Below are positions 1 to 17,717 of a stretch of DNA of 21,654 nt, piece after piece. Source of the DNA: Chthoniobacteraceae bacterium (GTDB taxonomy: Bacteria; Verrucomicrobiota; Verrucomicrobiia; Chthoniobacterales; Chthoniobacteraceae); assembly GCA_031409655.1 (NCBI GenBank), contig JANNXQ010000028.1, positions 1 through 21,654 of the forward strand, given 5' to 3'. The stretch's first letter is position 1; every line of letters starts with the position of its first letter. The notes below the pieces were generated by a model, which made no database searches, was not told the DNA's origin, and was given only the letters and a program-made list of their open reading frames with translations. The translations under genes and the position numbers were made by a program.

Positions 1-43
1 CGGCGAAGAAGGGCGAGCGGAGCGCGCGGCGCAGGAGTTTCAC
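1..43 (-). CDS. Probable 5' end of a gene running off the left edge (MKLLRRALRSPFFA...), coupled to the CHAT gene
   Basis: GTG at 43-41 overlaps the CHAT TGA stop (42-40) as GTGA. The frame is open to position 1. A basic N-terminus turning hydrophobic fits a signal or membrane anchor. Only 14 codons are visible. Confidence 0.5.
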   Translation of the reverse strand, partial: MKLLRRALRSPFFA

Positions 44-2394
44 AGCCAATTCCCGATGATGAGATACGGGGCCCAGAGGCACGGGTGACGGTAGCGCGGA
101 TTGGCCAGCAGCTTGCGTTGCGCGCCGCGCAGGGCCTGCGCCTTGGTCAGCTCCGGATCGGTGTGCAGCGCGGTGTAGAAGTCGTTGATGAGCTGCGTGG
201 AAGCCTCGTCACTGACAAACCAGAGCGTCGCGAAAGCGGCGCGCGCGCCCGCCTTCACGGCCACGCCCGCGAGGCCCAGCGCGGCGCGGTCGTCGCCGGC
301 CGCGGTCTGGCAGGCGCTGAGGGTGAGCAGCTCGACGGGCTGCTCGCGGAGTTGGCTCGGGCGGATCATCTGCTCGAGCTTGTCGAGCGAGAGCTTGCCA
401 TCGAAGGTGAGCACGAAGGACTTCTTCGCATCGCTGCTGAATTCGCCGTGGGAGGCGATATGCACCACGGAGAATTGCTGCTCTTTGAACTCCTTCGCCA
501 CGCTCTCGGTGAGGAACGTGCCGTTGAGCAGTTTGCTCCCTCCGTAGAGCGTATTGAGATCGCCGACTTCCTTCGCGACGAAAGGCAGCGCCGGAAAGCT
601 TTCGCCGTCCCGCTCCACGGCCTCGGAGAGTCCGCTGACCATCATCGCGATGCTCACGCGTTTGATTGCCTTTGGCTCCATGAGGCTGAGCCCGGGAGTG
701 ACGGCGATGGCATATTTTTCGACGAGAAACTTCTGGCCATCGTGGAGCGCGGCCATCGGGATGGTGCGCAGCGCGCCATCGGGCACGAAGACGAGCGTGT
801 CGATCTTCCCGCGGGCGAGCCGCGGCTCGAGGGGGCGGATGAGCCAGTCGTAGAGCTGCCAGGCTTCGGCAAGGAATTCGTTCGTCGTGCGGGTCTCGAG
901 ATGGGTGCGGAAGGCCCGGACGGTGTTGGTCAGGACGGCCGCAGTCACCGGCGCTTTCACCCGCTCGAGTCCGGCCGCGGTGCTGATGATGATCTCGGTG
1001 CGATCCGGCAGCGGCACGAGATAGAGCACCGCGGCACCTTTGGAGATTTCCTTCACGGTCGCCTCGACGGTCTTCTTTTTCGATTGCAGGAGATGCACAC
1101 AGTCGTCCTGAAAGTAGTCTTCGAGTTCCACCGCCTTGAGCAGCTCGCAGGTGTCCTGCGCTTCCCGGATGCACTGCACGACGGCCTCGGCATTGCCCAG
1201 CCCATCGGCGCGCTGGAGGAGCAGGTCCGCGAGTTCGAGGAAGACGTCGCCCACGGTTTCGCGGAAAGAGGTGCGGGCATTCGGATTCCCGAACCGGGCC
1301 GAGAGATCGGTGCGGATGCGCTCGATGTTCCCGATGGCCCGCCGGTAAGCCGCGATGGCTTCGTCGCGCCGGCCTTGCGCGCGGTCGATCCGGGCGGTCT
1401 GCCACTCCCAGCGATACAAGGCGTCGGGCGATTGCACCTTCTGTGCGAGGAAGGCCGCGCGACGCGTGAGGCGCAGCGCGTCCGCCCATTTTTTCTCCTG
1501 TTCGTAGAGATGCCCGGAGTAACCCAGCGCATAGGAAAGCGCGCGATCGTCGCCGAGCGCGGTCGCCGTGACGGCCGCTTTCTCATACGCGCGCAGGGCG
1601 TCGGCGCGCAGCCGATTGTCATGCGCCGGGGCGCGCTCGAAGAGCAGTTCCCAGTTCTTGCCCGCGCGCATCAGCGAGAAGGCCTTGTCGTGGGAATCGG
1701 GCAGCGCGAGCGCGGCGGCGAGGCCCGCGCGGTTCAAGTCGGCCGCCACCGCGAACTGCTCGCCGAGAACGGCGGTGCGGGCGGCGTTGATCGAGGCCTT
1801 CGTCGCGAGCGAGCCGTGGCCAGCCGCCTTGGCCAGCGATGCCGCCTCGCGATACGCATCCAGCGCCATGGCGAATTTCTCCTGCGCGCTCCGCAAGTTC
1901 CCGAGATCGTTCAGCACCGCCGCCACGGTCTCCTTTTCCCCAGCGGCACGCGCCACCTTGAGCGCTTCCTCCAGCGTCGGCTCCGCAGCGGCGGCGACAT
2001 GGGAAAATATCTGCAGACTCCCCAAGCGGGAGAGAGCCGCGGCCAGCCGGGCGCGGTCGCCCAGAGCCCGCGCTTCCTCGACGGCGTCGGTGGCCGCCTC
2101 GATCGCGCGGCGCTGTTCCCCGAGCGCCGCGTAGGCGCTCGCGAGATCGAGCTGGGTGTCGATCACCGCCGCCGCAGCGCTGTTTCGCTGATAGAGCACG
2201 AGCGCCGCTTGGTGCTCCGCGATCGCCTCCTCGAAGGCACCGCGTTCCGCAGCCTTCTCCGCCTTCATCCGCCGCTCGGAAGCACGTTCCTCCCAACCAG
2301 CGGAGGCCGTCGCAGAACCGACCCAGAGGGCCAGGAACGCGAGGACCAGCGGCCGCCACTTCATCGCCTGCTGAACGGTGCCAGTTTGTTGCAT
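40..2394 (-). CDS. Exported TPR + CHAT domain (caspase-like) protease
   Basis: Signal-like MKWRPLVLAFLALWVGSATASA, Ala-rich TPR helices, and CHAT motifs LVFVPDGALRTIPMAAL, VVHIASHG (His), LTLSACQT (Cys), ATLWFV and HPCLWAPYLIIGNWL. GAGGA SD precedes ATG 2394; alternative start at ATG 2364. Confidence 0.92.
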   Translation of the reverse strand: MQQTGTVQQAMKWRPLVLAFLALWVGSATASAGWEERASERRMKAEKAAERGAFEEAIAEHQAALVLYQRNSAAAAVIDTQLDLASAYAALGEQRRAIEAATDAVEEARALGDRARLAAALSRLGSLQIFSHVAAAAEPTLEEALKVARAAGEKETVAAVLNDLGNLRSAQEKFAMALDAYREAASLAKAAGHGSLATKASINAARTAVLGEQFAVAADLNRAGLAAALALPDSHDKAFSLMRAGKNWELLFERAPAHDNRLRADALRAYEKAAVTATALGDDRALSYALGYSGHLYEQEKKWADALRLTRRAAFLAQKVQSPDALYRWEWQTARIDRAQGRRDEAIAAYRRAIGNIERIRTDLSARFGNPNARTSFRETVGDVFLELADLLLQRADGLGNAEAVVQCIREAQDTCELLKAVELEDYFQDDCVHLLQSKKKTVEATVKEISKGAAVLYLVPLPDRTEIIISTAAGLERVKAPVTAAVLTNTVRAFRTHLETRTTNEFLAEAWQLYDWLIRPLEPRLARGKIDTLVFVPDGALRTIPMAALHDGQKFLVEKYAIAVTPGLSLMEPKAIKRVSIAMMVSGLSEAVERDGESFPALPFVAKEVGDLNTLYGGSKLLNGTFLTESVAKEFKEQQFSVVHIASHGEFSSDAKKSFVLTFDGKLSLDKLEQMIRPSQLREQPVELLTLSACQTAAGDDRAALGLAGVAVKAGARAAFATLWFVSDEASTQLINDFYTALHTDPELTKAQALRGAQRKLLANPRYRHPCLWAPYLIIGNWL

Positions 2395-2401
2395 TTTGTC
2401 C

Positions 2402-4882
2402 TCAGGATGCGTTCGTCACGCGCGCCAGCAGTTCGGAGCCGGTCATCCGGAAAGCCGCCTCGTGCGGACAGGAATAAACACAGCGCGGCAGCGGAGAGGA
2501 GCGCGTTCCGGCAGAATCGCAGAGGTCGCAGGTGGCGGCCTTCGGTTGCGCGATGCGCAGGCTGTGCGTGTGGCCCGCCGCCTTCGGTAGTTCGAGGGGC
2601 CGATGTTCATCCGGCGTCATGAAAATGCTGCCGTAAGGGCAATTCGTTGCGCACAAGCCGCAGCCGATGCAGTGATCTTCGATGACGATCTGCTGATGCC
2701 GGCCGCGATGGATGGAGTCCACCGGGCAGCCAGTCATGCAGTGCGGCGTCTCGCAGGAGCGGCAGGAAGTGGCGACGACGAAATTCCCGAAACGCGGCCC
2801 ATCGCGGAGCAGGCGGGTGATCGGCACGCCGTGCGATTCGACGCCGTGCTGCTGCACGCAGCCCTTGGTGCATTCGTCGCACCGCGTGCAGAGATCCAGG
2901 TCGAGCACGAGGACGCTCCGGGCCTCGTAGAGTCCCTGCTCCACGTACTGATTCATGAAGGGGTTCAGGTCGCGGGCGCTCCGCAGCCGCTCGAGGGAGG
3001 TCTCGACGATCCGGCGCCGCAGCGTCGGAAAATCGCGAATCATTTCGAGGAAATCGGCGCGATTCAGGCGCGCCAGTTCCACATGCTCCAGAGCCGTGCA
3101 GGTGGCCATGCGGACGCCGGCTGGGATCGCCCCAAGCAGTTCGGTGCCCGCGCCATCGAGCACGGCTTTGACGGCTCGGTCCACTTCGTCCGCGGTCTTG
3201 CCCGCGTCATCCGGCGAGACCGCCAGGAGGGCGATCTCGCCGAAAATCGAACCGGGCGGAAGACTGACCACGCGAGACTCACTGCCGAAGCGACGCAGCC
3301 CGACGCGGATGCGGCCGAGCCGCAACAAATAAAGACCATCGGCGGGATCCCCCTGCCGGAAGACGGTCTGGCCCGCGCCGACGCTCAGAAAGGAGAGTCG
3401 CGGTCGGAGAAATTCGATGAGCCGTCCGTACTCCGCGGTTTCGATCCCCTTGAACAAGTCCACACTCGACAAAACGACATCCAGCGAGCGCTCGCGATAG
3501 AGCCGCTCGAATTTTCCCCGCTGGCTCGGCAGCCGCATCAAACGATCGAGCACATTGCGGCGAATCTCCCAAATCTCCCCATCGTCCAGAGCCACGATGT
3601 CGGCGGATCTTGGCGAACTGCTCAGGCAGGCCATCTCGCCGACGATCACATCCGCGGGCGTCCGCTCCGCGCGAAACAAAACCTTTTCGCCCCTGCTCCG
3701 CGAGCGTCCGCCCCCAGATTGCGGCGCGCTCGCGAAGACCGACACTTCCAGTCTGCCGCGCCGAATGATGAACGCCGAATTGCCCGGATCGCCCTGCCGG
3801 CAAAGCACGTCACCCGCCTGGAATCGCCGGCGAACCGCCAGCCCTTGTTGCCAGAGGAGAAACTTCGGCGGCACGCCCGCGAAGAGCGGATCGCTGGTGA
3901 TTTCCGCGGCCGTCAAGACTTCGGATTTCCCCTGCCCGCTCGCGATTTTGACCTGCGCCACCGGTTTGAAAGTGATGGCGCTAGTCGGGCACGAGACCAT
4001 GCATTCGCCGCATTGCACGCAGCCCGATTCCGCCATCGGATCGTTCAGGTCAAAACCGATGCCCGCGCCCGCGCCCTTGCCCGTCCGGCCGATGATGTTG
4101 TTCCCCTTCACCTCATCACAGGCCCGGACGCAGCGGTCGCAGAGGATGCACGCGCTGTGATCAACGAGGAACACGGGAGACGAGGCGTCCACCGGCCGCC
4201 GCGGCGCGGCGGGAGCGTGGTTGGCAAAGGCGTCGAGCTGAAAGCGCGCGGCATCTCCCCCGCACCGCGCGTGGGCCTGCCCGAGTTCATTGAAGGCGGC
4301 GAGTTCCAGCGCGGGCGCGGGGGCGGGGGCCGGCTTCAAATGATCCGCGGCCAGCAATTCCGTGACCACTTTCACCGCCTGCCGGACGCGTTCTCCGTCC
4401 CGCCCAGGGGCGTTCATGGTGAAGACCTCCATCCCGTCTTTGACCGGATGCTGGCAGGCGGGCAGGAGCTTGCGTTCGGCGGCTCGCTTCCCGCGCTTTT
4501 GTCCGTAGATCTGCACGACACACACGCGGCAGACCGCCACCGGCGTCATGTGGGGCTGATGGCAAAGCGTGGGGATCGGGATCTTCGCTTCGTCGCCCGG
4601 CTCCCTCACGTAGAGCTTCACCGCGGCGTCGAAGATCGTGGTGTAGCGGGGCGTCGTCCGCCCTTCCCCATCGAGCACGATGTTGCCATTGGCATCGCCC
4701 AAGGGCTCCGCCAGTGGCACGGTCACGGCCTGGCCGTCGATCTGCAAGGTCACCGTCTTTCCGTAATCGGACTCCGCGGGAGCATCGAGGCGCACGAGTT
4801 GCCCGTCGATGTCGCGACTGAACAATCCCTCGTCGTCATCGCGAATGAACAGGCCCGTTTCGGGTTCGGGAGCTAGCGGCAT
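2402..4882 (-). CDS. Multi-Fe-S protein with tandem cNMP-binding domains ([2Fe-2S] + 2x[4Fe-4S] + 2x cNMP + 4x[4Fe-4S])
   Basis: IPTLCH..CRVC..LLPAC (NuoG/FdhA-type 2Fe-2S). CILCDRCVRAC and CVQCGECMVSCP. Two cNMP folds (RQGDPGNSAFIIRRG..VGEMACL..PRSA; RQGDPADGLYLLRLG..FGEIALL..VRMA). C-terminal 16-Cys DmsB-like pattern. GGAGG SD upstream; 10-bp overlap with the upstream gene. Confidence 0.9.
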   Translation of the reverse strand: MPLAPEPETGLFIRDDDEGLFSRDIDGQLVRLDAPAESDYGKTVTLQIDGQAVTVPLAEPLGDANGNIVLDGEGRTTPRYTTIFDAAVKLYVREPGDEAKIPIPTLCHQPHMTPVAVCRVCVVQIYGQKRGKRAAERKLLPACQHPVKDGMEVFTMNAPGRDGERVRQAVKVVTELLAADHLKPAPAPAPALELAAFNELGQAHARCGGDAARFQLDAFANHAPAAPRRPVDASSPVFLVDHSACILCDRCVRACDEVKGNNIIGRTGKGAGAGIGFDLNDPMAESGCVQCGECMVSCPTSAITFKPVAQVKIASGQGKSEVLTAAEITSDPLFAGVPPKFLLWQQGLAVRRRFQAGDVLCRQGDPGNSAFIIRRGRLEVSVFASAPQSGGGRSRSRGEKVLFRAERTPADVIVGEMACLSSSPRSADIVALDDGEIWEIRRNVLDRLMRLPSQRGKFERLYRERSLDVVLSSVDLFKGIETAEYGRLIEFLRPRLSFLSVGAGQTVFRQGDPADGLYLLRLGRIRVGLRRFGSESRVVSLPPGSIFGEIALLAVSPDDAGKTADEVDRAVKAVLDGAGTELLGAIPAGVRMATCTALEHVELARLNRADFLEMIRDFPTLRRRIVETSLERLRSARDLNPFMNQYVEQGLYEARSVLVLDLDLCTRCDECTKGCVQQHGVESHGVPITRLLRDGPRFGNFVVATSCRSCETPHCMTGCPVDSIHRGRHQQIVIEDHCIGCGLCATNCPYGSIFMTPDEHRPLELPKAAGHTHSLRIAQPKAATCDLCDSAGTRSSPLPRCVYSCPHEAAFRMTGSELLARVTNAS

Positions 4883-6948
4883 GACACATCCTCCCGGGTT
4901 TCGTCACGGACGGCATTTTCCGCCGCCCCCAAATGCTGCGCCAGGTCCTCTGGGAAAAAGCGGACCACCGTGCGCAGCGGCACCGGCACGGAGCGTCCGA
5001 GCCCGCAGATGGAAGCCAGCTCGATGACCGTGCCCATCTCCTGGACTAGGGGAAGGATCTCCTCCTGCCAACGAGCGGCGCTGATGCGACCTTCGAGCAG
5101 GTTTCTGCCGAGGTCCGCCAGCTTCTGCGAACCCAGCCGGCAGGGCACACATTTTCCGCAGGACTCCTGGCGGAAAAACTCGTTGGCATTCGCGGCCTGC
5201 TCCAGCATGTCGCGCCCCTCGGCATAGACCACCATGCCCGCGCCGAGCGCTTGCGTCGGGCTCAGCGCGCGGAAGACATTCAGCTCCAGTTCGAGATCGA
5301 GAATGTCGAGTTCGCCAGCCGCCGGATCGAAGCCCCGGCGGGCCGCGAGCGCCAGCCAGGTCTCATTGCTCGTGTGGTTTTTCGGCAGGCCACTCGCGAC
5401 CGTGAGTTTCGCCGGGAGAAATCCGCCTGATGGCCCGGAAGGCGCGAGCGCCTTCAAAGGCCGATCACCGACCATCCCCTGGCAGTAGCCTTCGCCGAAG
5501 AGCAGCTCGCGCACGGTGAGCCCCATCGGCACCTCATAGACTCCCGGCCGCTGCACATCGCCCGAGATCGAAAAGAACCGCCGCCCTTTCCACCCGTTCA
5601 CGCCCTGATCGGCGTAAGCCTGGCCGCCACGAAGTAAGATAAACGGCACCCAGATGAAGGTCTCCACATTACTAACGAGCGTCGGGAGATCTTGCAGTCC
5701 ATTGGTCTCGAGCTTCGGGGGCAAATTCCGTGGCTCACCCCGGCGGTCGGACATCGCCTCAATGAGCGCACTCTGCTCTCCGCAAATGTAGCCCCCGGGG
5801 CTGACGAACACCGAGATGGGAAAAGGCCGGCCCAGCACCGAAGCGTTTTCCCCGCAGATTCCCAACTGTTCGGCGCGCCGGATTTCCTCCCGGCACGCGG
5901 CGATCTGCTCGCTGTATTCGTGGCGGATGTAAATGAAGCCCTGGGTGGCTTCGGTGATCAGCCCAGCCAGGATCACCCCTTCGATGATGAGATGCGGTGT
6001 CCGGAGCAGGAGTTCGCGATCCTTGAAAGTGCCGGGCTCACTCTCGTCTCCATTCACCACGATGAAGGCCCGGTCGTCGGCCTGACGGCCGCGCGCCGTG
6101 CGCACCGCATCGCGCACATCGCGCCATTTCTGGATCGCCGGGATACCCGCGCCGCCCATGCCGCGGAGATCGGCCTGCTTGAGTTCCTCCAGCAAGCCGT
6201 CCGACCAGCCGCCGAGGTGCGCGCCCTTGGCCCAATCGTCGTCGAGCTGCCAGCAGCGCACGGCCTGCGCAACCGCGGCATCCATGGCGACTTCCACCCG
6301 CATCTGCCGGATCGCCCCAAACCGGAACTGTTCCGTGTTCTCGCGGCGCCAATCCGACCGCTCCGCCAGCAACTCCATCGCCGCCGCCAACGAGGCGTCG
6401 CGCACGGCGACCGCGTTTCGGACCGCCGCATAATCCGACGGACCTTCATAAGTCTCGACCATCCAAGCCGCCATCGTCGGCGCCAGATCCCCATCCCGAT
6501 CCGCCGGCGGGAGCAGACCCTGAAGACAACCCGCGGCCACCCCATCCAACTCGCCAAACGACCGCCCGAGGTAATAGTGGTCGTGCTCCAAACCTTTGAC
6601 CGAAAAACAAGCTGCCGGCGCCCGGTCACAGCGGCCCTGGCAAGACACGCTCTCGACCGCGACTTCGTCCCCTTCCAGAGACCCGGCCCGCGCGCGAAGC
6701 TCCGCCGAACCCGCCATGGAGCACGCCATATCCCGGCAAATCCGCAGGACGATCCGCCGCGCTGGCGACAAACGAAAATGCGGAAAGAAACTCGCCACTT
6801 CCTGAATGCGGTAGAGGGGCACACCCGATTCCTGCGCATACCGCTGCAAGGCGCTGCGCTCAAGATGCCCATACTCCTCCTGAATCCGCTGCAAAGTGGG
6901 GACGAGAACCGAACGGTAGAAATTTTCCTTCGTTGCGCTCATCTTCAC
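4873..6948 (-). CDS. NuoE-NuoF (HoxF-like) fused NAD(P)H-dependent flavoprotein/diaphorase
   Basis: NuoE part: VASFFPHF and CRDMAC...SCQGRCDRAP. NuoF part: LRGMGGAG, VNGDESEPGTFKDR, YICGEQSAL, NVET, SLBB region, and ESCGKCVPCRLG...SICGLG (N3 cluster). Start is GTG 6948 or ATG 6942. Confidence 0.9.
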   Translation of the reverse strand: MKMSATKENFYRSVLVPTLQRIQEEYGHLERSALQRYAQESGVPLYRIQEVASFFPHFRLSPARRIVLRICRDMACSMAGSAELRARAGSLEGDEVAVESVSCQGRCDRAPAACFSVKGLEHDHYYLGRSFGELDGVAAGCLQGLLPPADRDGDLAPTMAAWMVETYEGPSDYAAVRNAVAVRDASLAAAMELLAERSDWRRENTEQFRFGAIRQMRVEVAMDAAVAQAVRCWQLDDDWAKGAHLGGWSDGLLEELKQADLRGMGGAGIPAIQKWRDVRDAVRTARGRQADDRAFIVVNGDESEPGTFKDRELLLRTPHLIIEGVILAGLITEATQGFIYIRHEYSEQIAACREEIRRAEQLGICGENASVLGRPFPISVFVSPGGYICGEQSALIEAMSDRRGEPRNLPPKLETNGLQDLPTLVSNVETFIWVPFILLRGGQAYADQGVNGWKGRRFFSISGDVQRPGVYEVPMGLTVRELLFGEGYCQGMVGDRPLKALAPSGPSGGFLPAKLTVASGLPKNHTSNETWLALAARRGFDPAAGELDILDLELELNVFRALSPTQALGAGMVVYAEGRDMLEQAANANEFFRQESCGKCVPCRLGSQKLADLGRNLLEGRISAARWQEEILPLVQEMGTVIELASICGLGRSVPVPLRTVVRFFPEDLAQHLGAAENAVRDETREDVSCR

Positions 6949-7185
6949 ATAAAGCCACGCGGGCGGGAACGGGGGTCAGGAATGCCAGTGCGCACAGGGC
7001 GCATGGAAATGCCCCAGCCTTCTGACGTCAAACGCATTTCGGGGATCCAAACGAATGACGAACCGCCATCCGTCCGTGGATGGGCGCACTTGGACTTCTC
7101 CAGATCATGCGCCGAACGGCCGTCCTGGCGAATAAACCGCCCCCCGCCCCATCGCAAGACCCTCGCAAAAAGGCCGAACAAACAC

Positions 7186-7213
7186 TTGCAAAGGCATCTC
7201 CCCTCCCCATACT
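7186..7213 (+). promoter_or_regulatory. Putative sigma70-type promoter of rpsO-pnp
   Basis: TTGCAA (7186-7191), 16 bp spacer, CATACT (7208-7213), ending 21 bp before the rpsO ATG. Confidence 0.45.
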
Positions 7214-7234
7214 GCGCGGCTCCTAAAAACTGAT

Positions 7235-7489
7235 ATGACTGACACCACGGAAATCCAGGCACTCCGCATCCACGAAAAAGACACGGGAAGTGCCGACGTG
7301 CAAATCGCCCTCCTGACTGCGCGAATCAACCACCTGACGGAGCACTTGAAAGGTCATGTGAAGGATCACTCCTCACGGCGCGGCCTGCTGATGCTCGTCG
7401 CCCGGCGGCGCAAGATGCTCGATTATCTCAAGCGCACCGCGAGCGATCGCTACAAGAACGTGCTCGAGAAATTGAGTCTGCGGAAATAG
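7235..7489 (+). CDS. rpsO: 30S ribosomal protein S15
   Basis: [47 protein letters not shown] signature; lies upstream of pnp. Confidence 0.98.
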
Positions 7490-7503
7490 CGACTCTTCGA
7501 TTT

Positions 7504-7548
7504 TGAAAACGGTGCGCCCGCGATCTTCTCGCGGGCGAACTGTTTCAG
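7504..7548 (+). other. Stem-loop after rpsO (possible attenuating terminator or processing stem)
   Basis: CGCCCGCGA (7515-7523), loop TCTTC, TCGCGGGCG (7529-7537), extended imperfectly by TGAAAACGGT/ACTGTTTCA. No clean U-tract. Confidence 0.5.
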
Positions 7549-7651
7549 CCCCCAACGAAAAACTTTCCCGCAGCGCTTTGGCCCTTCGCCTGAGCGGTGC
7601 GTCAACCACAGGAAAAACAACCAGCCGGCACTCCCTTTTTCCCCTCCGGGC

Positions 7652-7794
7652 CTAGTCTTAGCCCCGGGCTTTCACGGCCTCCCTCTTCTTCTCCTTCTTC
7701 ATCTCCTCCTCCTTCTTCCGACAATCCACCGGAAGCAGAAGGAGATGAAGTAGGAGAAGAAGAAGATTTGAGAAAGTCCCGGGCTACGAGCTAG
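7652..7794. repeat. Long imperfect inverted repeat (about 140 nt hairpin) in the pnp leader
   Basis: Left arm 7652-7720 (CTAGTCTTAGCCCCGGGCTTTC...TCTTCTTCTCCTTCTTCATCTCCT...CTTCCG), loop ACAATCCAC, right arm 7730-7794 (CGGAAG...AGGAGATGAAGTAGGAGAAGAAGA...GAAAGTCCCGGGCTACGAGCTAG). Confidence 0.85.
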
Positions 7795-7846
7795 CCGTCC
7801 GTTCGGAAAATGTGGGTGCCAGGCGCAAAACAAAACAAGCACACCC

Positions 7847-9982
7847 ATGATCCATAATGTCACCGCCCACGTCGGGCCCAATCCCATCACCATCGAAACC
7901 GGCAAGCTCGCGAATCTCGCGGACGGCGCCGTCACCGTCCGCAGCGGCGAGACCATCATGTTCGTCTCCGCCGTCTCCGCAACCAGCATCAAGGAAGGCC
8001 AGGACTGGTTCCCGCTTTCCGTCGAATATCGCGAAAAAGCCGCCGCGGTCGGCAAGTTCCCCGGCGGCTACTTCAAGCGCGAAGGCCGGCCCACCGAAAA
8101 GGAAGTCCTCACCTGCCGCATGACGGATCGCCCGCTGCGTCCGCTCTTCCCGAAAGGCTACCTCTACGACACCCAGATCATCGGCGTCCTGCTCAGCGCG
8201 GATGGCGAGCATGATCCCGACATTCTGATGATGAACGGCGCGAGCGCCGCCCTCATGGTCAGCGATATTCCCTTTGCCGGCCCCGTGGCCGCCGTCCGCG
8301 TCGGACGCGTGAATGGCCAGTTCGTCGTGAATCCCGGCCATAGCCAGCGCGAGTCGAGCGATCTCGACCTCGTCTATGTCGGAACGAAGGACGACGTCAT
8401 CATGATCGAAGGCGCTGCCGACGAGTTGCCTGAGGAAGATTTCGTGAACGCGTTGAAATTCGCGCATGCGGAAGCCAGCAAGCTCATCGCCGCGCAGATC
8501 GAACTCGCCGCGAAAGCCGGCAAGGTGAAGCGCGAAGTCCCGCTCTTTACGGTGCGCGAAGAACTCATGGAAGTCGCCTATTCTGTCGCTGGTGATCGCA
8601 TCGAGGGAGCCATCTACAACCCGACCAAGGTCGCCCGCTCCAAAGCGATCGGCGCGCTCAAGGAAGAAGTCACCGCCGCGATCGTGGCGAAGTTCCCCGA
8701 AGCCTCGAAGTTCGAAGTCAGCCAGGCCTTTGACTATCTCCAGAAGAAGGCCTTCCGCATCAGCATCCTCGACAAGCAAGTGCGCGCCGACGGTCGCGGA
8801 CCCGATGCCATCCGCCCGCTGAGCGCCGAAGTCGGCATGCTCCCGCGTTCACATGGCAGCGCCATCTTCAATCGCGGCGAAACGCAAGCCGTGGCGCTCG
8901 CCACCCTCGCTCCCGCCGAGGAAGCTCAGGATCTCGACGGCTACACTGGCGGCGAGACTACCAAACGCTTCATCCTGCACTACAACTTCCCGCCTTTCTC
9001 CGTCGGCGAGACCGGCCGCACCGGCGGCATGAACCGCCGCGAGATCGGCCACGGCGCGCTCGCCGAGCGCTCCATCGAGCCCGTCATCCCGAGCGTCACC
9101 GATTTCCCCTACGCCATCCGCGTGAGCAGCGAAGTCATGTCGTCGAATGGCTCCACCTCCATGGCCAGCGTCTGCTCCGGCATCCTCGCCCTCATGGACG
9201 CAGGCGTGCCGATCAAGAAGCCCGTCGCCGGCATCAGTTGCGGCCTCGTCACCGAGTACGACGGCGCCACGCTGAAGCGCTACACGATGCTCAACGACAT
9301 CATCGGCAGCGAAGATCACTTCGGCGACATGGACTTCAAACTCTGCGGCACCGACGCCGGCGTCACCGGCTTCCAGCTTGACCTCAAACTCCCCGGCATC
9401 TCGCTGCGCATGATGGAGGAAGCCGTCTATCGCACGCGCGACGCCCGCATGATCGTGCTCGCCGCGATGGCCGAGGCCATCAACGCCCCGCGCACCGAAC
9501 TCAGCAAATACGCCCCGCGCATCGAGACCATCAAGATCAACCCCGAGAAGATCGGCATGCTCATCGGGCCCGGCGGCAAGAACATCAAAGGCATCGTTGC
9601 CGAGACCGGTTGCGAAATTAACGTCGACGACGACGGCATGGTCCGCATCTACTCGAACAACCCCGAAGGCATGGCCCGCGCCAAGCAGATCATCGACGGC
9701 ATGTTCGCCGAGATGGAAGTCGGCGCGATCTACCAGGGCAAAGTCGTGACGATCAAAGAATTCGGCGCCTTCGTCGAAGTCCTGCCCGGCAAGGACGGCC
9801 TCGTCCACATCAGCGAGCTCGCGGACTTCCGAGTAAATCGCACCGAAGACGTCGTCAAGATGGGCGAACTCATCTGGGTGAAAGTCGTCGGCGTAGATGA
9901 AAAGGGCCGCGTGAAGCTCAGCCGCAGAGCCGCAATGAAAGAGCGCGGCGAAGCCATGGCCCCCGCGCCGGCTCAAACGTAA
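7847..9982 (+). CDS. pnp: Polyribonucleotide nucleotidyltransferase (PNPase)
   Basis: [51 protein letters not shown] and [10 protein letters not shown] motifs, then KH (IGPGGKNIK) and S1 ([20 protein letters not shown]) domains. Confidence 0.98.
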
Positions 9983-10042: not shown

Positions 10043-10253
10043 GCGCGAATATGGCGAGGTCATCTCCGGCTCAGGCGGAGGAAGGCCGCGAGGGCCGGGA
10101 GAGGTGCTGGGGAAGCAGACCGGGTAGCCGCTGTGAAATCGATCATCACCATGCCATCGTCAATCTCCACCATTCCCTTGCGCCGCCCGATTGCCTATCT
10201 ATCACCTCCCACAGCTTACTCGTATTTCCGAACGAGCCACTCCTCCTCATCCC

Positions 10254-11504
10254 GTGCTTACCCTCGAAAAATTCTCCATCGGTGTCGGCGACCGTTTCGC
10301 CCACCAAGCCAAAGCCCAGCTCCGCGCCTGCCAGCTCCTCGCCCGCGATGGCGCGGAGGTCGTGCCGGTCTGGAATAAGTCGAACCGCGAACATACCTTC
10401 GTGGGCTCGGAGCCAGAATCGGTGCTCGTCGCCGCGCGCGACGCGGTGCAGGCGCTCGGCTGGAAAGGCGGCTGGCACGTGGATGCCGATCACATCCGGC
10501 TCGAAACCGTGGATCGCTTTCTCCCGCACTCCGATTTTTTCACCCTCGATGTCGCGGATTCCATCGGCCAGCCAGCGGCTCCCGCGGACGTGCAGGCTTT
10601 CGTGGATCGGCATCCCGAACTCCTCGGAATGATCTCGATCCCGCAGATCGCGACACCCTTCACCACCACCCGCGCTGAGATCGAGCGCATCGCCGGGAAG
10701 TTCCTTCTGGCCGTGCAGGATGCAGGGAAGATCTACCGCCACATCGCGGAGAAGAAGGGCGCGGACCACTTGATCGCCGAGGTCTCGATGGATGAAACGG
10801 ACACGCCGCAGACACCGCCGGAGCTGCTGGTGATCCTCGCCGCGCTCGCCGACGAAAAAGTGCCCGTACAGACCATCGCGCCGAAGTTCACCGGTCGCTT
10901 CAACAAGGGCGTCGATTACGTCGGTGACCTCGCGCAGTTCGAACGGGAATTTCACGACGATCTCGCGGTCATCGCCCACGCCATTGCCCGCTACGGACTC
11001 CCGGCGAATCTCAAGCTCAGCGTCCACAGCGGGAGCGACAAATTTTCCCTCTACCCGATCATCCGGCGCACGCTACCGAAATTCGGCGCGGGTCTGCATC
11101 TGAAGACGGCGGGCACGACGTGGCTCGAGGAACTCATCGGCCTCGCCGAAGCCGGAGGGGAAGGTCTCGCGCTCGCGCAGGAGATCTACGCCGGAGCGAT
11201 CGGTCATGTGGATGAATTCTGCGCGCCCTACGCCTCGGTGATCGACATCGACAAAGCGCAGCTCCCGACCGCGGACGAAGTCGCCGGCTGGACCAGCGAC
11301 CAATACACCGGCGCGCTCCGCCACGATCAAAAGAACCCGCGCTTCAACGCCAGCTTCCGGCAACTCCTCCATGTGTCCTTCAAACTTGCGGCCAAGAAAG
11401 GCCAGCGCTACCTCGACCTCCTCCTCGCCAACGAAGAGATCGTCGGGAAGAACGTGACGGAAAACCTCTACGTGCGGCACCTGAAGCCGCTCTTTATCGG
11501 ATAG
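10254..11504 (+). CDS. uxaE: Tagaturonate/fructuronate epimerase family protein (UxaE)
   Basis: FSIGVGDRF, HVDADH, EVSMDET, APKFTGRFNKGVDY, KLSVHSGSDKFS and HLKTAGTTWLEE motifs. GTG 10254 is preferred over the ORF-track start at 10191. Confidence 0.85.
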   Translation: MLTLEKFSIGVGDRFAHQAKAQLRACQLLARDGAEVVPVWNKSNREHTFVGSEPESVLVAARDAVQALGWKGGWHVDADHIRLETVDRFLPHSDFFTLDVADSIGQPAAPADVQAFVDRHPELLGMISIPQIATPFTTTRAEIERIAGKFLLAVQDAGKIYRHIAEKKGADHLIAEVSMDETDTPQTPPELLVILAALADEKVPVQTIAPKFTGRFNKGVDYVGDLAQFEREFHDDLAVIAHAIARYGLPANLKLSVHSGSDKFSLYPIIRRTLPKFGAGLHLKTAGTTWLEELIGLAEAGGEGLALAQEIYAGAIGHVDEFCAPYASVIDIDKAQLPTADEVAGWTSDQYTGALRHDQKNPRFNASFRQLLHVSFKLAAKKGQRYLDLLLANEEIVGKNVTENLYVRHLKPLFIG

Positions 11505-11506
11505 CG

Positions 11507-11550
11507 AATTTTGAAAACACAGAGATGCAGAGACGCGGAGGACGCAGAGA
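11507..11550 (+). repeat. Left inverted-repeat arm of the GxxExxY cassette (tandem ~8-9 nt CGCAGAGA-like units)
   Basis: AATTTTGAAAACACAGAGATGCAGAGACGCGGAGGACGCAGAGA, a near reverse complement of 11978-12019. Confidence 0.88.
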
Positions 11551-11556
11551 AGAGAC

Positions 11557-11976
11557 ATGCATGAGAATGAACTTTCGCGGTTGATCATCGGGGCCGCGAT
11601 CGAAGTGCATCGCGAAGCAGGACCGGGACTGATCGAAAAGCCTTACGAGGAAGCGATGTGCCATGAGTTGAATCTGCGTGGGTGGAAGTTCACTCGCCAG
11701 CGGGCAGTGCCGTTCGTTTATAAGGGAATCACGCTCTCCACAGACTTGCGCACGGACCTCATCGTCGCGGACAAGGTGATCGTGGACTTAAAAGCGAAAG
11801 ATCAAATCAGCGCCATCGACAAAATGAAGATGCTCACCTACCTGCGCTTTCACAATCTGCGGCTCGGACTGATCATCAACTTCCACGTCGAGTTGCTCAA
11901 AGATGGAGTTCATCGAGTCGTCAACAACCTCCTGCCTCCTCCCCCGCCCGAAACACCAGCAAACTTCCACGCCTGA
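11557..11976 (+). CDS. GxxExxY protein (PD-(D/E)XK nuclease-like)
   Basis: IIGAAIEVHREAGPGLIEKPYEEAM (GxxExxY), RTDLIVADKVIVDLKA (D...DxK) and YLR...GLIINF. 139 aa with a Pro-rich tail; visibly more A/T-rich than its neighbours. Confidence 0.93.
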   Translation: MHENELSRLIIGAAIEVHREAGPGLIEKPYEEAMCHELNLRGWKFTRQRAVPFVYKGITLSTDLRTDLIVADKVIVDLKAKDQISAIDKMKMLTYLRFHNLRLGLIINFHVELLKDGVHRVVNNLLPPPPPETPANFHA

Positions 11977-11977
11977 A

Positions 11978-12019
11978 TCTCTGCGCTCCTCTGCGCCTCT
12001 GCATCTCTGCGTTAAAATT
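11978..12019 (-). repeat. Right inverted-repeat arm of the GxxExxY cassette
   Basis: TCTCTGCGCTCCTCTGCGCCTCTGCATCTCTGCGTTAAAATT, starting 1 nt after the GxxExxY stop. Confidence 0.88.
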
Positions 12020-12036
12020 TTACCGATTGTACCGAA

Positions 12037-12891
12037 GTGAAATCCGCCATCACCGTCTCCCTCGTCCCGCAAGCCGCTGGCGGTCCATTCGTTTTTTGGA
12101 ACGGACTGGCTGACGCTTTTGAACAGGCGGCGGCGTTCGGTTTCGATGCGGTGGAGATTTTTCCGCCGGGCGCTGAGGCTCTCGACACGACCGCGATTCG
12201 GGCGCTGGCGGCGAAGCATCGCCTCGCGATCGCTGCGGTCGGCACAGGTGGCGGATGGGTGATCCATAAATTGACGCTCACCCATGCCGAACCATCGATC
12301 CGCGCGAACGCCCGGGAGTTCATCCGCGGCCTCATCGACAAAGCCGCGGCGCTCGATACGCCGGCGATCATCGGCTCGATGCAGGGACGATGGGAAGGTG
12401 GCGTGACCCGCGAACAGGCCCTCACCTGGCTGGGAGAAGCACTCGAGGATCTCGGCGCGCACGCGGCAAAGCTTGGGCAGCACTTGCTCTACGAGCCACT
12501 GAACCGCTACGAGACGAATCTCCTCCACCGCACGCCGGATGCCGCCGCCTGGCTGCGCACCCTCGACACGGACAATGTCCGCATCCTCTCCGACCTCTTT
12601 CACATGAACATTGAAGAGCCCGATATCGCGACCTCGCTCCGCGAAGCGGGCAGCCTTGTCGGCCACGTTCACTTTTCCGACTCAAACCGGCGGGCGATCG
12701 GGCTCGGGCATACGGACGTGGCGCCGATCATCGGGGCGCTGAGGGATATCGATTACACTGGCTACCTCTCGGCAGAGATCGTCCCGCTGCCGGATGCGGC
12801 CACGGCGGCACGGAAGACGATCGAGAGCTTCCAGCACTTCACGACGGGCGAACATCGAACCTCGAACGTCGAACATCGAACCTCGAAATGA
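12037..12891 (+). CDS. Sugar isomerase/epimerase, xylose-isomerase-like TIM barrel (D-tagatose 3-epimerase / IolO-like)
   Basis: GFDAVEI, IIGSMQG, YEPLNRYET, DLFHMNIEE, HVHFSDSNRR and YLSAE metal-binding motifs. GTG start; the last 13 aa are repeat-encoded. Confidence 0.88.
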   Translation: MKSAITVSLVPQAAGGPFVFWNGLADAFEQAAAFGFDAVEIFPPGAEALDTTAIRALAAKHRLAIAAVGTGGGWVIHKLTLTHAEPSIRANAREFIRGLIDKAAALDTPAIIGSMQGRWEGGVTREQALTWLGEALEDLGAHAAKLGQHLLYEPLNRYETNLLHRTPDAAAWLRTLDTDNVRILSDLFHMNIEEPDIATSLREAGSLVGHVHFSDSNRRAIGLGHTDVAPIIGALRDIDYTGYLSAEIVPLPDAATAARKTIESFQHFTTGEHRTSNVEHRTSK

Positions 12892-12952
12892 TTGGGCTGC
12901 CGCGCTGTTTCCTTGTTCGAGGTTCAGTGTTCGAAGTTCGATGTTCGATGTT
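12849..12952. repeat. Inverted heptamer tandem-repeat hairpin, (CGAACNT)n...(NGTTCGA)n
   Basis: Left 12849-12887: CGAACAT CGAACCT CGAACGT CGAACAT CGAACCT CGAA. Spacer 26 nt. Right 12914-12952: TGTTCGA GGTTCAG TGTTCGA AGTTCGA TGTTCGA TGTT. Confidence 0.9.
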
Positions 12953-12963
12953 TTCTCCACTCC

Positions 12964-13413
12964 ATGCTCAAGACCACCCAACTCCTCCACCCCGAGATCC
13001 TGCGCATCGTCGCTCGCGCCGGGCATCACTCCAAGATCCTGATCGCCGACGGCAACTATCCCGCCTCGACGAAACGGGGTCCCAACGCCGAACTCGTCTG
13101 CCTCAATCTTGCCCCCGGCGTCGTCACCGTCGCGCAAGTCTTGCGCGCGCTGCTCAGTGAAGTCCCCGTGGACCATCTGAATACCATGGGCATCCCGGCG
13201 GACGATCCGTATGCCAGTTTTGGCGAGCCGCCGGTGTGGGCGGAATTGCGCAGCATCACCCACGAAGCCGGCCTCAAAGTGATGGTCGAGCCGATCCCGA
13301 AATGGGACTTCTACAAGGCCGTGGAATCACCCGACCATGTGCTCACCATCCAAACTGCCGACCAGGCGCTGTGGGCGAATGTCCTCCTCACCATGGGCTG
13401 CCGCACCGCCTGA
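12964..13413 (+). CDS. RbsD/FucU family sugar mutarotase/pyranase
   Basis: MLK..LLHPEILRIVARAGHHSKILIADGNYP N-terminus, KWDFY and IQTADQALWANVLL. Start is ATG 12964; the ORF-track extension is repeat-derived. Confidence 0.88.
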   Translation: MLKTTQLLHPEILRIVARAGHHSKILIADGNYPASTKRGPNAELVCLNLAPGVVTVAQVLRALLSEVPVDHLNTMGIPADDPYASFGEPPVWAELRSITHEAGLKVMVEPIPKWDFYKAVESPDHVLTIQTADQALWANVLLTMGCRTA

Positions 13414-13418
13414 CGGCG

Positions 13419-13449
13419 GAAATCCGAAATCCGAAATCCGAAACTCGAA
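13419..13449 (+). repeat. Solo heptamer tandem array (GAAATCC)3 GAAACTC GAA
   Basis: Fills almost the whole gap between the mutarotase stop (13413) and the AKR ATG (13450). No inverted partner was seen. Confidence 0.85.
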
Positions 13450-14385
13450 ATGTTACCCACCCGCCGCCTCGGTCGCACCGATCTCCAACTTCCCATCCTC
13501 AGCTTCGGCGCTTCATCGCTCGGGCAGGAATTTCGCAGCGTCAAACTCGATGAAGCCCTCGGTAGCGTCCGCGCGGCGCTCGATGCAGGGCTCAACTTCA
13601 TCGACACCTCGCCCTTCTACGGACGCGGTATGAGCGAAGTCCTGCTCGGTATCGCGCTCCGCGGCATCCCGCGCGAGAGCTACATGCTTTGCACCAAAGT
13701 GGGGCGCTACGATCTGCAGCATTTTGACTTCAGCGCGAAGCGCATGGCGGAAAGCGTGGAAGTCTCGCTGCACCGCCTCGGCACTGAGTATCTCGACATC
13801 GTGCTCTGCCACGACATCGAGTTCGTGCCGCTCCAGCAAATCGTGGATGAGACGATTCCCGCGCTCCGCAAAATCCAGCAGCAGGGCAAGGTGCGCTACA
13901 TCGGCTTCAGCGGATATCCCATGAAGATCTTCCGCACGATCCTCGACCAGACCCATGTGGACTGCGTGCTGAGCTACAATCAATACACGCTGCAAAACAC
14001 GCGCTTCGCCGACGAGATCATCCCGTATCTGGAGTTGAAAGGCGTAGGCGTGATGAATGCCGGCCCCTTCAGCGCCCGCCTGCTCACCAATGCTCCCCTC
14101 CCCGCGTGGCTCAAGGAACCCGAGGAAGTGAAGGCCGCCGCACGCAAGGCCGCGGAACTCTGCGAAAAGGAGGGTTCGGACATCGCCAAGCTCGCGCTGC
14201 AATTCTGCATCGGGAATGCGGACATCACGACGACCATCGCCGGGAGCGCCAATCCCGAGAACGTGAAGAAGTGGGCCGAATGGGCCGCCGAACCGCTCGA
14301 CCGCAAACTGCTCGCGAAAGTGGAGAAGATCTTCGAGCCCGTGAAAAACATCGGCCACCCCGAAGGCCTGCCCGAAAACAACTAA
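13450..14385 (+). CDS. Aldo/keto reductase, L-galactose dehydrogenase-like
   Basis: RRLGRTDL..LSFGASSLG, GLNFIDTSPFYG, LCTKVGRY, SLHRLGTEYLDIVLCHDIEF and GKVRYIGFSGYP. Confidence 0.85.
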   Translation: MLPTRRLGRTDLQLPILSFGASSLGQEFRSVKLDEALGSVRAALDAGLNFIDTSPFYGRGMSEVLLGIALRGIPRESYMLCTKVGRYDLQHFDFSAKRMAESVEVSLHRLGTEYLDIVLCHDIEFVPLQQIVDETIPALRKIQQQGKVRYIGFSGYPMKIFRTILDQTHVDCVLSYNQYTLQNTRFADEIIPYLELKGVGVMNAGPFSARLLTNAPLPAWLKEPEEVKAAARKAAELCEKEGSDIAKLALQFCIGNADITTTIAGSANPENVKKWAEWAAEPLDRKLLAKVEKIFEPVKNIGHPEGLPENN

Positions 14386-14399
14386 CCGCGCGTCATTCC

Positions 14400-15428
14400 A
14401 TGAAGGCCATCTCGCTCAACGAGCCTCAGCAATTTAGCCGCATCGAAGTCTCCGAGCCCCCGGCCCCCGGCGCGGGCGAAGTGCTCGTGCGCGTCCATCG
14501 TATCGGCATCTGCGGCACCGACTACAGTGGCTATCTCGGGAAGATGCCGTTCTTCAGTTACCCGCGCATCCCGGGACATGAACTCGGCGTGGAAGTTCTC
14601 GCCGTCGGCGAAGGTGTCACCCAAGTGCGCGTCGGTGATCGCTGCGCCGTCGAGCCGTACATGAATTGCCAGCAGTGTTACCCATGCCGGCATGGCAATG
14701 GAAACTGCTGTGAATCCCTGAAAGTGATCGGCGTCATGACCGACGGAGGCATGCGCGAGCGGATCCTCTTACCCGCCCGCAAAGTGCATCCGGCAAACGC
14801 GCTCTCTCCCGATCAATGCGCGCTCGTCGAGACCCTGGCGATCGGCTGCCACGCGGTAAACCGCGGCGCACCCGTGCCCGGAGAAAATGTGCTCGTCATT
14901 GGCGCGGGCCCGATCGGGCTCAGTGTCATTGAGTTTGCGAAGCTCAGCGGCGCGCGGACCATCGTGATGGACTTGAACGAGCAGCGCCTCGAATTCGTGC
15001 GTAAGAAGATGGGGGTACCGGACACGATTTTTTCCAAAGGCGACGGCTCGGAACTCGAGACGCTGCAGGAAATGACCAGCGGCGATCTCGCGCAAGTGGT
15101 GATCGACGCGACGGGCAGCCACAAATCCATGTCGGGATGCTTCCAATTCGCCGGCTTCACTGGGCGCGTCGTTTACGTCGGCATCACGCAACAGGAGGTC
15201 TCCTTCCCGCACGCCCCACTCGTCCACCGCCGCGAACTCACCCTCCTGGCCAGCCGCAACGCGCATCCCGCGGACTTTACGCGGATCGTAAAATTGATCG
15301 AAGACGGCAAAATCGACACCCGCCCGTGGATCACCCACCGCGCGACTTTCGACGCGATGATCGACGTCTTCCCGGCCTGGCTGAAGCCGGAGAGCGGCGT
15401 GATCAAAGCAATCGTGAGTGTGGACTGA
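14400..15428 (+). CDS. Zinc-dependent sugar-acid dehydrogenase (L-galactonate 5-dehydrogenase YjjN/LgoD-like)
   Basis: GICGTD, YPRIPGHELG, structural Zn motif CQQCYPCRHGNGNCC, VIGAGPIG and RRELTLLASRNA. True start is ATG 14400. Confidence 0.88.
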   Translation: MKAISLNEPQQFSRIEVSEPPAPGAGEVLVRVHRIGICGTDYSGYLGKMPFFSYPRIPGHELGVEVLAVGEGVTQVRVGDRCAVEPYMNCQQCYPCRHGNGNCCESLKVIGVMTDGGMRERILLPARKVHPANALSPDQCALVETLAIGCHAVNRGAPVPGENVLVIGAGPIGLSVIEFAKLSGARTIVMDLNEQRLEFVRKKMGVPDTIFSKGDGSELETLQEMTSGDLAQVVIDATGSHKSMSGCFQFAGFTGRVVYVGITQQEVSFPHAPLVHRRELTLLASRNAHPADFTRIVKLIEDGKIDTRPWITHRATFDAMIDVFPAWLKPESGVIKAIVSVD

Positions 15429-16258
15429 TGCGTCTCGATTCGCATCAACACTTCTGGCGCTACGACGCGGCGCAGTACCCCTGGATTCCGCAGGGCTCGC
15501 CTTTGCACCGCGACTGGCTGCCTGCGGATCTTGCGCCGCTGCTCGCGACCGCGAAGCTCGATGGGTGCATCGCGGTCCAGGCGCGGCAGACGCTCGACGA
15601 GACGCGTTGGCTTTTGGGGCTGGCGGAATCTTCGGCGATCATCAGAGGTGTGGTCGGCTGGGTGGATTTGCGGAGCGAGCGCGTGGGGGAGCAACTCGCG
15701 GAGTTTGCGGGCAATGCGAAGTTCGTTGGCGTGCGCCACGTGGTGCAGGATGAGCCGGATGTGGACTTCATCCGTGGCGCGGACTTTCAACGCGGGATCG
15801 CACGGTTGCAGCCGCTAGGGCTGACCTACGACCTGCTCATATTCCCGAAACAACTTCCCGCAGCGATCGATCTCGTGAGCAAATTTCCGGAACAGCGTTT
15901 CGTGCTCGATCACATCGCCAAACCGGCGATCAAGAACGGCACGATGTCGCCGTGGCGGGAGCTGATCCGCGAACTGGCGCAGGCGCGGAATGTGACCTGC
16001 AAGGTGAGCGGCATGATCACTGAGGCCAGCCGCGCCGGGTGGGCGGCGGACGACTTCAAGCCGTATCTCGACACGGTTGCCGAGGCCTTCGGTTCGGGCC
16101 GGCTGATGTACGGCAGCGACTGGCCGGTGTGCCTGCTCGCGGGGAGTTACGAGCGGGTGTTTCAGCTGGTGGAGGAATACTTTGCGCCGCTTTCCGCGAT
16201 GGAACGTGCGGCAGTCTTCGGGGTGACGGCGGAGACGTTTTACTTCGGGGCTCGCTGA
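15428..16258 (+). CDS. Amidohydrolase-family sugar lactonase (L-fucono/L-galactono-1,5-lactonase-like)
   Basis: MRLDSHQHFW, IAVQA, GVVGWVDL, GVRHVVQDE, FVLDHIAKP, CKVSGMITEA and RLMYGSDWPV. TGATG overlap with the upstream gene. Confidence 0.88.
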   Translation: MRLDSHQHFWRYDAAQYPWIPQGSPLHRDWLPADLAPLLATAKLDGCIAVQARQTLDETRWLLGLAESSAIIRGVVGWVDLRSERVGEQLAEFAGNAKFVGVRHVVQDEPDVDFIRGADFQRGIARLQPLGLTYDLLIFPKQLPAAIDLVSKFPEQRFVLDHIAKPAIKNGTMSPWRELIRELAQARNVTCKVSGMITEASRAGWAADDFKPYLDTVAEAFGSGRLMYGSDWPVCLLAGSYERVFQLVEEYFAPLSAMERAAVFGVTAETFYFGAR

Positions 16259-17274: not shown

Positions 17275-17309
17275 AGCGAAAGCCTCAATCCAAACTCACC
17301 ATCGGGAAC

Positions 17310-17681: not shown

Positions 17682-17717
17682 GGCGCGCGGCGGGTTGGTT
17701 TTGAAAAAGGGAGGGGA

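Follow-up and report, generated by a model that had tools for sequence, protein, structure and literature searches.

The start of a contig from a Chthoniobacteraceae bacterium (JANNXQ010000028.1, positions 1 to 21,654, hereafter the window; assembly GCA_031409655.1, designated G000) encodes in close succession a NuoEF-type flavoprotein, an iron-sulphur (Fe-S) protein with two stretches matching cyclic nucleoside monophosphate (cNMP)-binding domains, and a TPR-CHAT protease. This arrangement raises the question of where such a redox pair would deliver its electrons and whether the protease is part of the same system. The locus is a variant, fed by NuoEF, of the PCC4/Ptd kind of cytochrome cluster and not a new redox-protease system. 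It probably works as an entry point for NAD(P)H, regulated by cNMP, into a cytochrome conduit of that type that crosses the envelope.

The 691-aa flavoprotein consists, according to Pfam, of a NuoE-like 2Fe-2S domain followed by Complex1_51K, SLBB and NADH_4Fe-4S domains, and by sequence it carries a site for flavin mononucleotide (FMN) and NAD(P)H. Its 16 cysteines comprise the ligand sets for N1a and N3 only (Table 1), without the extra Fe-S clusters of bifurcating enzymes. The motif GEQS is found in 64 of 65 homologues, whereas NuoF of the bacterium's own complex I and of Aquifex have GEET, glutamine thus replacing the second glutamate. Morina and co-workers are said to have found in 2011 that changing this NuoF glutamate lets complex I use NADPH. 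The GEQS motif is therefore a lead suggesting that NuoEF may use NADPH. Complex I has its own separate nuoEFG genes on another contig (C293), and the locus contains no hydrogenase, formate dehydrogenase or membrane arm, in agreement with an earlier note on this DNA, which had called NuoEF non-respiratory. The closest solved relatives of NuoEF are the beta subunit of a formate dehydrogenase (7E5Z) and HydB/HoxF.

The 826-aa protein showed the Pfam order Fer2_4, Fer4, two cNMP_binding stretches and Fer4. Residues 70–314 matched the N-termini of HoxU, FeFe-hydrogenase and NuoG in NCBIfam, every match being below the family cut-off, and the His-ligated N5-type motif of such modules is absent, as H181 is kept but its three cysteines are missing. 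All 28 cluster cysteines (4 + 8 + 16) and the Gly/Glu/Arg residues of both cNMP cassettes are kept in 70–72 of 72 homologues. The Fe-S partner with two cNMP-binding domains described earlier was confirmed. From these conserved ligands it can be expected that the proteins of the pair bind their cofactors. The top Foldseek matches of the structure model were the regulatory domains of protein kinases A and G (PKA/PKG), corresponding to the cNMP domains. The second phosphate-binding cassette contains a helical insertion of about 35 aa (residues 555–588, window 3119–3220), which is absent from the six short forms aligned. An acidic N-terminal stretch (residues 1–40, window 4763–4882) is near-invariant in long homologues, yet was modelled with low confidence; it is possibly a docking peptide for NuoEF. 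In three members of the family (P0130, P0135, P0144) N-terminal FHA domains replace the redox input, suggesting phosphothreonine control in some lineages, and in one genome (G026:C7:160000-164600) the homologues of both genes are split by frameshifts, due to either sequencing error or decay.

Table 1. Coordinates of the genes, domains and predicted cluster ligands discussed in the text. Plain coordinates refer to the window; those with a prefix refer to other contigs of the source assembly (G000). G002 is a related genome.
Feature	Position	Strand	Remarks
NuoEF gene	6948-4873	minus	691-aa open reading frame
NuoEF 2Fe-2S (N1a) ligands	Cys 71/76/103/107		from sequence
NuoEF 4Fe-4S (N3) ligands	Cys 597/600/603/648		from sequence
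cNMP/Fe-S gene, long PtdE-type	4882-2402	minus	826-aa open reading frame
NuoG/HoxU-like N-module	4759-3989	minus	residues 42-298; 2Fe-2S C107/118/121/143; two 4Fe-4S motifs C245-C298
Tandem cNMP-binding domains	3832-3047	minus	about residues 351-612; cassettes G415-E416...R425 and G548-E549...R591
DmsB/NrfC/HydN-like C-terminal four-cluster module	2890-2468	minus	16 Cys, C665-C805
TPR-CHAT protease gene	2394-40	minus	784-aa open reading frame; first gene of CHAT/CHASE2-cyclase/DUF928 module
CHASE2-class III nucleotide cyclase, first 14 codons only	43-1	minus	match to G002 cyclase N-terminus
Inferred remainder of cyclase	G000:C91:3569-1794	minus	73% match to G002 cyclase; then DUF928 gene
PCC4/PtdF-type membrane protein	G000:C244:3033-4007		not in window

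The genomic context of the pair was compared in the best 80 of 168 confirmed loci; the relatives are mostly Chthoniobacterales. A NuoEF gene lies upstream of the cNMP/Fe-S gene in all 73 loci with at least 500 nt of upstream flank (75/80 overall). A set of further genes recurs near the locus, encoding a membrane protein, a decahaem cytochrome, a c554-type cytochrome, an LVIVD decahaem protein, an HbpS-like protein and a putative porin. Within 10 kb, one or more of these Ptd-like genes are present in 28 of the 37 fully flanked loci and in 42 of all 80, and for the 38 loci with none nearby, 33 genomes hold the membrane protein elsewhere (32/37 without the unpublished G328). Among 61 relatives, the membrane protein accompanies PtdE, as the cNMP/Fe-S protein is called in the Ptd cluster, in all 15 PtdE carriers. 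When 351 genomes sampled evenly across the phylum were searched, one and the same set of 13 yielded both the C-terminal Fe-S module and the membrane protein; in 12 of the 12 besides G000 the Fe-S gene immediately precedes that of the membrane protein, as also in two of the compared loci (L190, L076). The PtdE family is not confined to this phylum: it is frequent among Verrucomicrobiota, Acidobacteriota and Planctomycetota of soil and fresh water, and it occurs in 27 of 251 sampled genomes, about a tenth, of a class centred on Alphaproteobacteria, including culturable Sphingobium.

These partner genes connect the locus to two published predictions. In the available text of He et al. (2017; PMC5566968), PCC4 comprises 4-, 5- and 10-haem cytochromes, a porin, an Fe-S gene and a membrane protein with the same motifs as the one found here, and is modelled as quinone-linked with flow from donor to quinone. 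Elbon et al. (bioRxiv 10.1101/2023.11.21.568154) describe, in the part accessible, a ptdABCDEFG operon whose function is given as unknown. By gene content, PCC4 subgroup II and ptdABCDEFG appear to be one cluster type. The exact published ptd order was recovered in three loci (L180, L182, L185), which were used for comparison in place of the published sequences themselves. PtdE, the product of the fifth gene, is 28% identical to residues 354–813 of the 826-aa protein (543 columns, E 6e-38), and PtdE, PtdF, PtdG and PtdD of such loci are all homologous to proteins of G000 (23–31%). In an acidobacterial locus (L190), NuoEF, long PtdE, the membrane protein and the decahaem form one run. With single L180 queries, the pentahaem PtdA and the porin PtdB gave no tblastn match at E 1e-4 in G000, which is 94.9% complete; the FNR-type PtdC gave none either, and in relatives NuoEF takes its position. 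Three unrelated flavoprotein inputs alternate across the family: the FNR type (L180, L205, L207, L209), a pyridine-nucleotide-disulphide type fused to PtdE, and NuoEF. Of the arguments for NAD(P)H as the cytoplasmic partner of the system, we regard this interchange of inputs as the strongest. In a tree of the Fe-S module the sequences were grouped by input type with three changes, and in a quick tree of the membrane protein long and short forms were mixed. Two of the alignments (A3, A4) omit three of 55 gene pairs (L060, L079, L133), which are partial or carry a long insertion. Hybrid loci (L207–L210) have PtdC of the FNR type as input, but an output made up of the LVIVD decahaem, the putative porin and the HbpS-like protein.

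The membrane protein of G000 contains the motifs W94-H98-H112, S135-G139 and W294-H298-H312. Both WX3HX13H motifs, with four invariant histidines, are present in 53 of 53 aligned rows, and SGXXG in 49 of 53. Its fold was modelled confidently, with a predicted local distance difference test score (pLDDT) of 91; fold searches gave generic helical bundles and no clear solved fold, and an Atlas search returned unnamed clusters only. A complex model of PtdE residues 641–826 with the membrane protein scored 0.70, compared with 0.00 for the best control, with a contact agreement of at least 93% and a partner pLDDT of at least 79. The docking mark is reached by 116 of 157 solved pairs and 2 of 215 mismatched pairs, a calibration that is only rough here given our own alignments and the ligands. 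In the model, the C665/C805 cluster region lies against the invariant W94 and P147, beside the first histidine pair. Although such a model does not show binding, it supports docking of the C-terminal Fe-S module on the haem face of the membrane protein. Taken with the co-occurrence, we are confident that the Fe-S/NuoEF pair partners with this membrane protein, and electrons likely flow from the pair to it. In G000 the genes for the membrane protein, decahaem, c554-type cytochrome, HbpS-like protein, putative porin and LVIVD decahaem are distributed over contigs C244, C195, C203, C42 and C100. The decahaem has ten CxxCH motifs, and the c554-type protein three, compared with four in the alphaproteobacterial ones. 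Contig ends interrupt both the LVIVD decahaem gene and the HbpS-like gene; the pieces overlap but are non-identical, which suggests two copies or a strain mixture.

In the mechanism that we propose, NuoEF and the 826-aa protein would form the cytoplasmic entry for NAD(P)H. Electrons would pass from NAD(P)H to FMN, to the 4Fe-4S cluster of NuoF and on to the 2Fe-2S and the two 4Fe-4S clusters of the NuoG-like module, and then across a cNMP-controlled gap to the four 4Fe-4S clusters of the C-terminal module. The cNMP domains, situated between the two Fe-S modules, would thus be the likely switch, and we consider it fairly probable that cNMP controls electron flow. The last Fe-S cluster would dock on the four-histidine membrane protein and reduce two b haems in the membrane, from which electrons could reach the membrane-anchored decahaem, the c554-type cytochrome and the large LVIVD decahaem beside the putative porin. 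An outward direction is the one we favour, if by no means firmly. The cyclic nucleotide would likely be supplied by CHASE2 cyclases. More tentatively, an envelope sensor, here the CHAT protease acting on a CHASE2-cyclase module, might raise cyclic AMP and close the Fe-S gap, so that NADPH drives a quinone-free wire through the dihaem membrane protein and across the envelope; equally tentative is the extension that electrons then reach multihaem cytochromes on the outer surface, with the input being swapped among three unrelated folds.

cNMP domains are known as control elements of transcription factors, kinases, channels and a small number of enzymes; direct gating of an Fe-S relay would, if true, be a new use of them. 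In the published PCC4 model the membrane protein is linked to quinone, and the connection to NAD(P)H in the cytoplasm proposed here changes that picture. Neither cNMP gating nor direct docking of an Fe-S protein on the membrane protein is proposed in the accessible parts of Elbon et al. or He et al., the word 'cyclic' being absent from the retrieved text of the latter, and no publication on such gating or on the NuoEF form of the cluster was found in the open-access literature. The soluble two-protein module, the two cassette arginines and the modelled interface make the function of PCC4/Ptd directly testable.

Several observations weigh against this reading. Nine of the 37 fully flanked loci have no cytochrome genes nearby, in G000 itself the redox pair and the cytochrome genes are on separate contigs, and no membrane-protein match was found in five of the 38 genomes mentioned above, whose assemblies are incomplete. 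The related genomes behind the co-occurrence counts are not independent. The full-length model of the 826-aa protein is mediocre (pLDDT 67.5, predicted template modelling score 0.58) and gives no view of how the two Fe-S modules meet, and among solved cytochrome b folds there was no match to the membrane protein. The bacterium's own cyclase has arginine where the adenine-specifying lysine is usual. Finally, in seven relatives (L129–L133, L135, L138) a short PtdE directly precedes the membrane-protein and decahaem genes without a flavoprotein beside it, which the proposed mechanism does not explain, and the available text of He et al. (PMC5566968) describes one PCC4 subgroup without the Fe-S gene. 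Because of these last two cases, neither the flavoprotein nor the Fe-S module can be obligatory.

Two alternatives survive best, each with a rather small probability in our estimation. Electrons might flow inward, with the cytochromes oxidising an outside donor such as Fe(II) or reduced humics and the pair reducing NAD(P)+, or the membrane protein might exchange electrons with quinone. NuoF-type modules are reversible, which counts in favour of this possibility. PCC4 is also reported from genomes of Fe(II) oxidisers, with the donor-to-quinone flow already noted (He et al., PMC5566968, available text). However, NAD(P)+ reduction from b or c haems would be uphill, NuoEF lacks the additional clusters of bifurcating enzymes, ion-pumping subunits are not among the genes recurring in the 80 loci, and in the complex model an Fe-S cluster sits directly against the membrane protein. 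Alternatively, and with the same low probability, the locus could be a signalling device in which a small flux or the redox state serves as the signal, is integrated with cNMP and controls an envelope enzyme such as the LVIVD decahaem or the HbpS-like protein. The similarity of the tandem cNMP domains to PKA regulatory subunits, the FHA-fused variants, the short PtdE forms without an adjacent flavoprotein, and a run of Crp, CHAT, CHASE2, ShlB and adhesin-like genes that directly adjoins the cytochrome cluster of Sphingobium herbicidovorans all fit this idea, but the pair has no kinase, DNA-binding or other output domain, and the more than 20 c-type haem motifs of the partner genes would be a large investment for a sensor.

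A third alternative, the version of the earlier note, combines the redox pair and the exported CHAT protease into one dedicated stress or defence system. The physical linkage in the window is real: the NuoEF and 826-aa genes overlap by 10 bp, a 7-bp gap separates the latter from the CHAT gene, and the CHAT and cyclase genes share a GTGA overlap at 43–40. The description of three tightly coupled genes with a probable fourth thus held in its open reading frames, domains and junctions, and the fourth gene is real, since 11 of the 14 residues encoded at its start are identical to those at the N-terminus of the G002 CHASE2-cyclase, whose gene lies behind the CHAT orthologue there. The window starts at base 1 of its contig (C28), and G002 cyclase residues 46–622 match a reading frame cut at the end of C91. 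Most likely, the run therefore reads NuoEF, cNMP/Fe-S, CHAT, cyclase and DUF928, the C28–C91 join being inferred rather than assembled. An assembly chimera was ruled out, as both internal junctions are bridged by contigs from four public DNA runs of one study, which may include the source sample; one of these contigs reaches 985 nt beyond the window start. The CHAT domain of the protease is unambiguous (Pfam E 2e-57), with catalytic motifs at His-Gly 649–650 (motif 645–650) and Cys 695 (motif 692–695). Judged by inspection of the sequence alone, the N-terminus is signal-peptide-like: it has a single hydrophobic stretch around residue 16, and the orthologues begin in a similar way.

Outside the window this linkage largely dissolves. 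A profile search found a CHAT domain beside long PtdE in none of the 80 loci, including the 57 with at least 2.5 kb downstream; the profile, built from 12 sequences, did find distant alphaproteobacterial CHAT domains, and very divergent ones could escape it. For the operon, this is the outcome that the earlier note had named as refuting its proposal. The start of a CHAT gene is visible only in L001 (93% identical), where the coupling is also tight, and the gene after long PtdE varies widely among the loci. In the six relatives with a CHAT orthologue (6/60; seven loci, 47–76% identity), it never shares a contig with a PtdE match, and among 26 alphaproteobacterial carriers CHAT lies within 11 kb in only two near-identical loci, behind unrelated genes. 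All seven CHAT carriers among the 61 relatives do have the membrane protein (p 0.018 among the 23 genomes of at least 4.5 Mb, kin not being independent), and in Sphingobium a CHAT module abuts the cluster. The association was not repeated in the phylum sample: the orthologue occurs in five of the 351 genomes and overlaps with the membrane protein only in G000 and in G589, where it is on other contigs. Besides G000, the membrane protein is missing from three of the four CHAT carriers, and this CHAT from 11 of the 12 genomes with the membrane protein. CHAT as a core partner was rejected on the basis of its absence from the 57 loci, the variable gene after long PtdE and the scattered distribution in the phylum, and we consider a dedicated redox-CHAT system improbable.

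CHAT is best read as belonging to an optional cyclase module, one cyclase input among others, and that it follows the redox pair directly here seems to be a peculiarity of the lineage. A CHASE2-class III cyclase gene directly follows CHAT in five of the seven orthologous loci. Cyclase co-occurrence, raised in the earlier note, is seen here in the same gene run and, within 10 kb, as CHASE2-cyclases in 12 of the 37 fully flanked loci, compared with four such genes in the 6.85 Mb of G000. These locus-linked cyclases are often accompanied by FecR, TPR or barrel genes and not by CHAT. In two alphaproteobacterial genomes (G186, G201) the cyclase gene abuts the cytochrome cluster, and a CHASE2 gene is present in 26 of 26 alphaproteobacterial carriers tested and in three of 14 controls, which were unmatched. 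At what we take to be the functional positions of class III cyclases (the metal-binding Asp pair, the Asn/Arg pair and the adenine-specifying Lys), the cyclase of G000 has Asp, Asp, Asn and Arg, with a further Arg at the Lys site, as in G002; G012, G013 and G036 have Lys. From the redox-signalling-protease system of the earlier note, the non-respiratory NuoEF with a cNMP partner remains, CHAT drops out of the core, and its link to the pair is only indirect, via the cyclase module. Least likely is an orphan diaphorase for a hydrogenase or formate dehydrogenase encoded elsewhere, which the best solved relatives of NuoEF and a molybdoprotein on contig C13 (presumably FdhF/YdeP-like) might suggest, but for which the search for a partner failed, as G000 (94.9% complete) yielded no catalytic subunit of the NiFe or FeFe type, its molybdoproteins match nothing in the 80 loci, no catalytic or membrane-arm partner occurs there, and the co-occurrence with the membrane protein would be left unexplained.

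The remainder of the window is occupied by other functions. A sugar-acid catabolism run (10191–16258) begins with the tagaturonate epimerase UxaE and continues, as labelled by eye, with a sugar isomerase, a FucU/RbsD-like protein, an aldo-keto reductase, a zinc dehydrogenase and an amidohydrolase. Housekeeping genes, also labelled by eye, are located at 7235–9982 and 16266–18305 (rpsO-pnp, YraN, RNase HII, rplS, tadA). The G+C content falls to 58% at 7001–8000. A membrane-anchored TPR protein of 575 aa (18402–20129) has no relation to the redox genes.

Compared with known systems, the pair shares with the NuoEFG, HoxEFU and FdsBG diaphorases the NuoE 2Fe-2S cluster, the FMN/nucleotide site, N3 and the NuoG-like 2Fe-2S and 4Fe-4S ligands (N1b, N4-type). 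It differs from them in the loss of the His-ligated N5-type motif and in having GEQS where complex I has GEET; in place of a catalytic domain or membrane arm it carries cNMP domains in tandem and a DmsB-like module. The electron-bifurcating HydABC has extra C-terminal Fe-S clusters on its NuoF-like subunit (PMC7483475, accessible part), which NuoEF lacks. With other modules of CHAT, CHASE2-cyclase, DUF928, ShlB and adhesin genes, for which a search of the open-access literature yielded only an unrelated survey of WD40 proteins, the locus shares the order of CHAT followed by cyclase; the full set is found on Sphingobium pMSHV, and the redox pair directly upstream of CHAT distinguishes the present case. 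A Verrucomicrobia porin-cytochrome cluster with eight-haem partners has been described (PMC5615132, accessible part), which is not shown to be the same system.

The closest likeness is to PCC4/Ptd, with which G000 shares the PtdE-type cNMP/Fe-S protein, the WX3HX13H/SGXXG membrane protein (PtdF), the decahaem (PtdG), the c554-type cytochrome (PtdD) and a flavoprotein input. Here, NuoEF and a NuoG-like module joined to PtdE form the input in place of the FNR-type PtdC, a 10-haem LVIVD protein, another putative barrel and the HbpS-like protein stand for PtdA/PtdB, and the genes are split over several loci. Because PtdA, PtdB, PtdC and the gene order were not recovered, we do not count the system as a strict member of PCC4/Ptd. 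A more distant parallel is offered by the NADPH oxidases and ferric reductases (NOX/FRE), which transfer electrons across membranes and include calcium-sensing forms. There, too, an NAD(P)H flavin module feeds a membrane domain that has two HX13H motifs and is predicted to hold two haems, and a ligand-sensing domain is attached. The HX13H link between the membrane protein and NOX/FRE was drawn in the available text of He et al. (PMC5566968); between the membrane protein and FRD there is no Pfam or fold match. In comparison with NOX/FRE, the system proposed here would use a different flavoprotein, a relay of seven predicted Fe-S clusters in between, cNMP sensing, and c-type cytochromes as acceptors.

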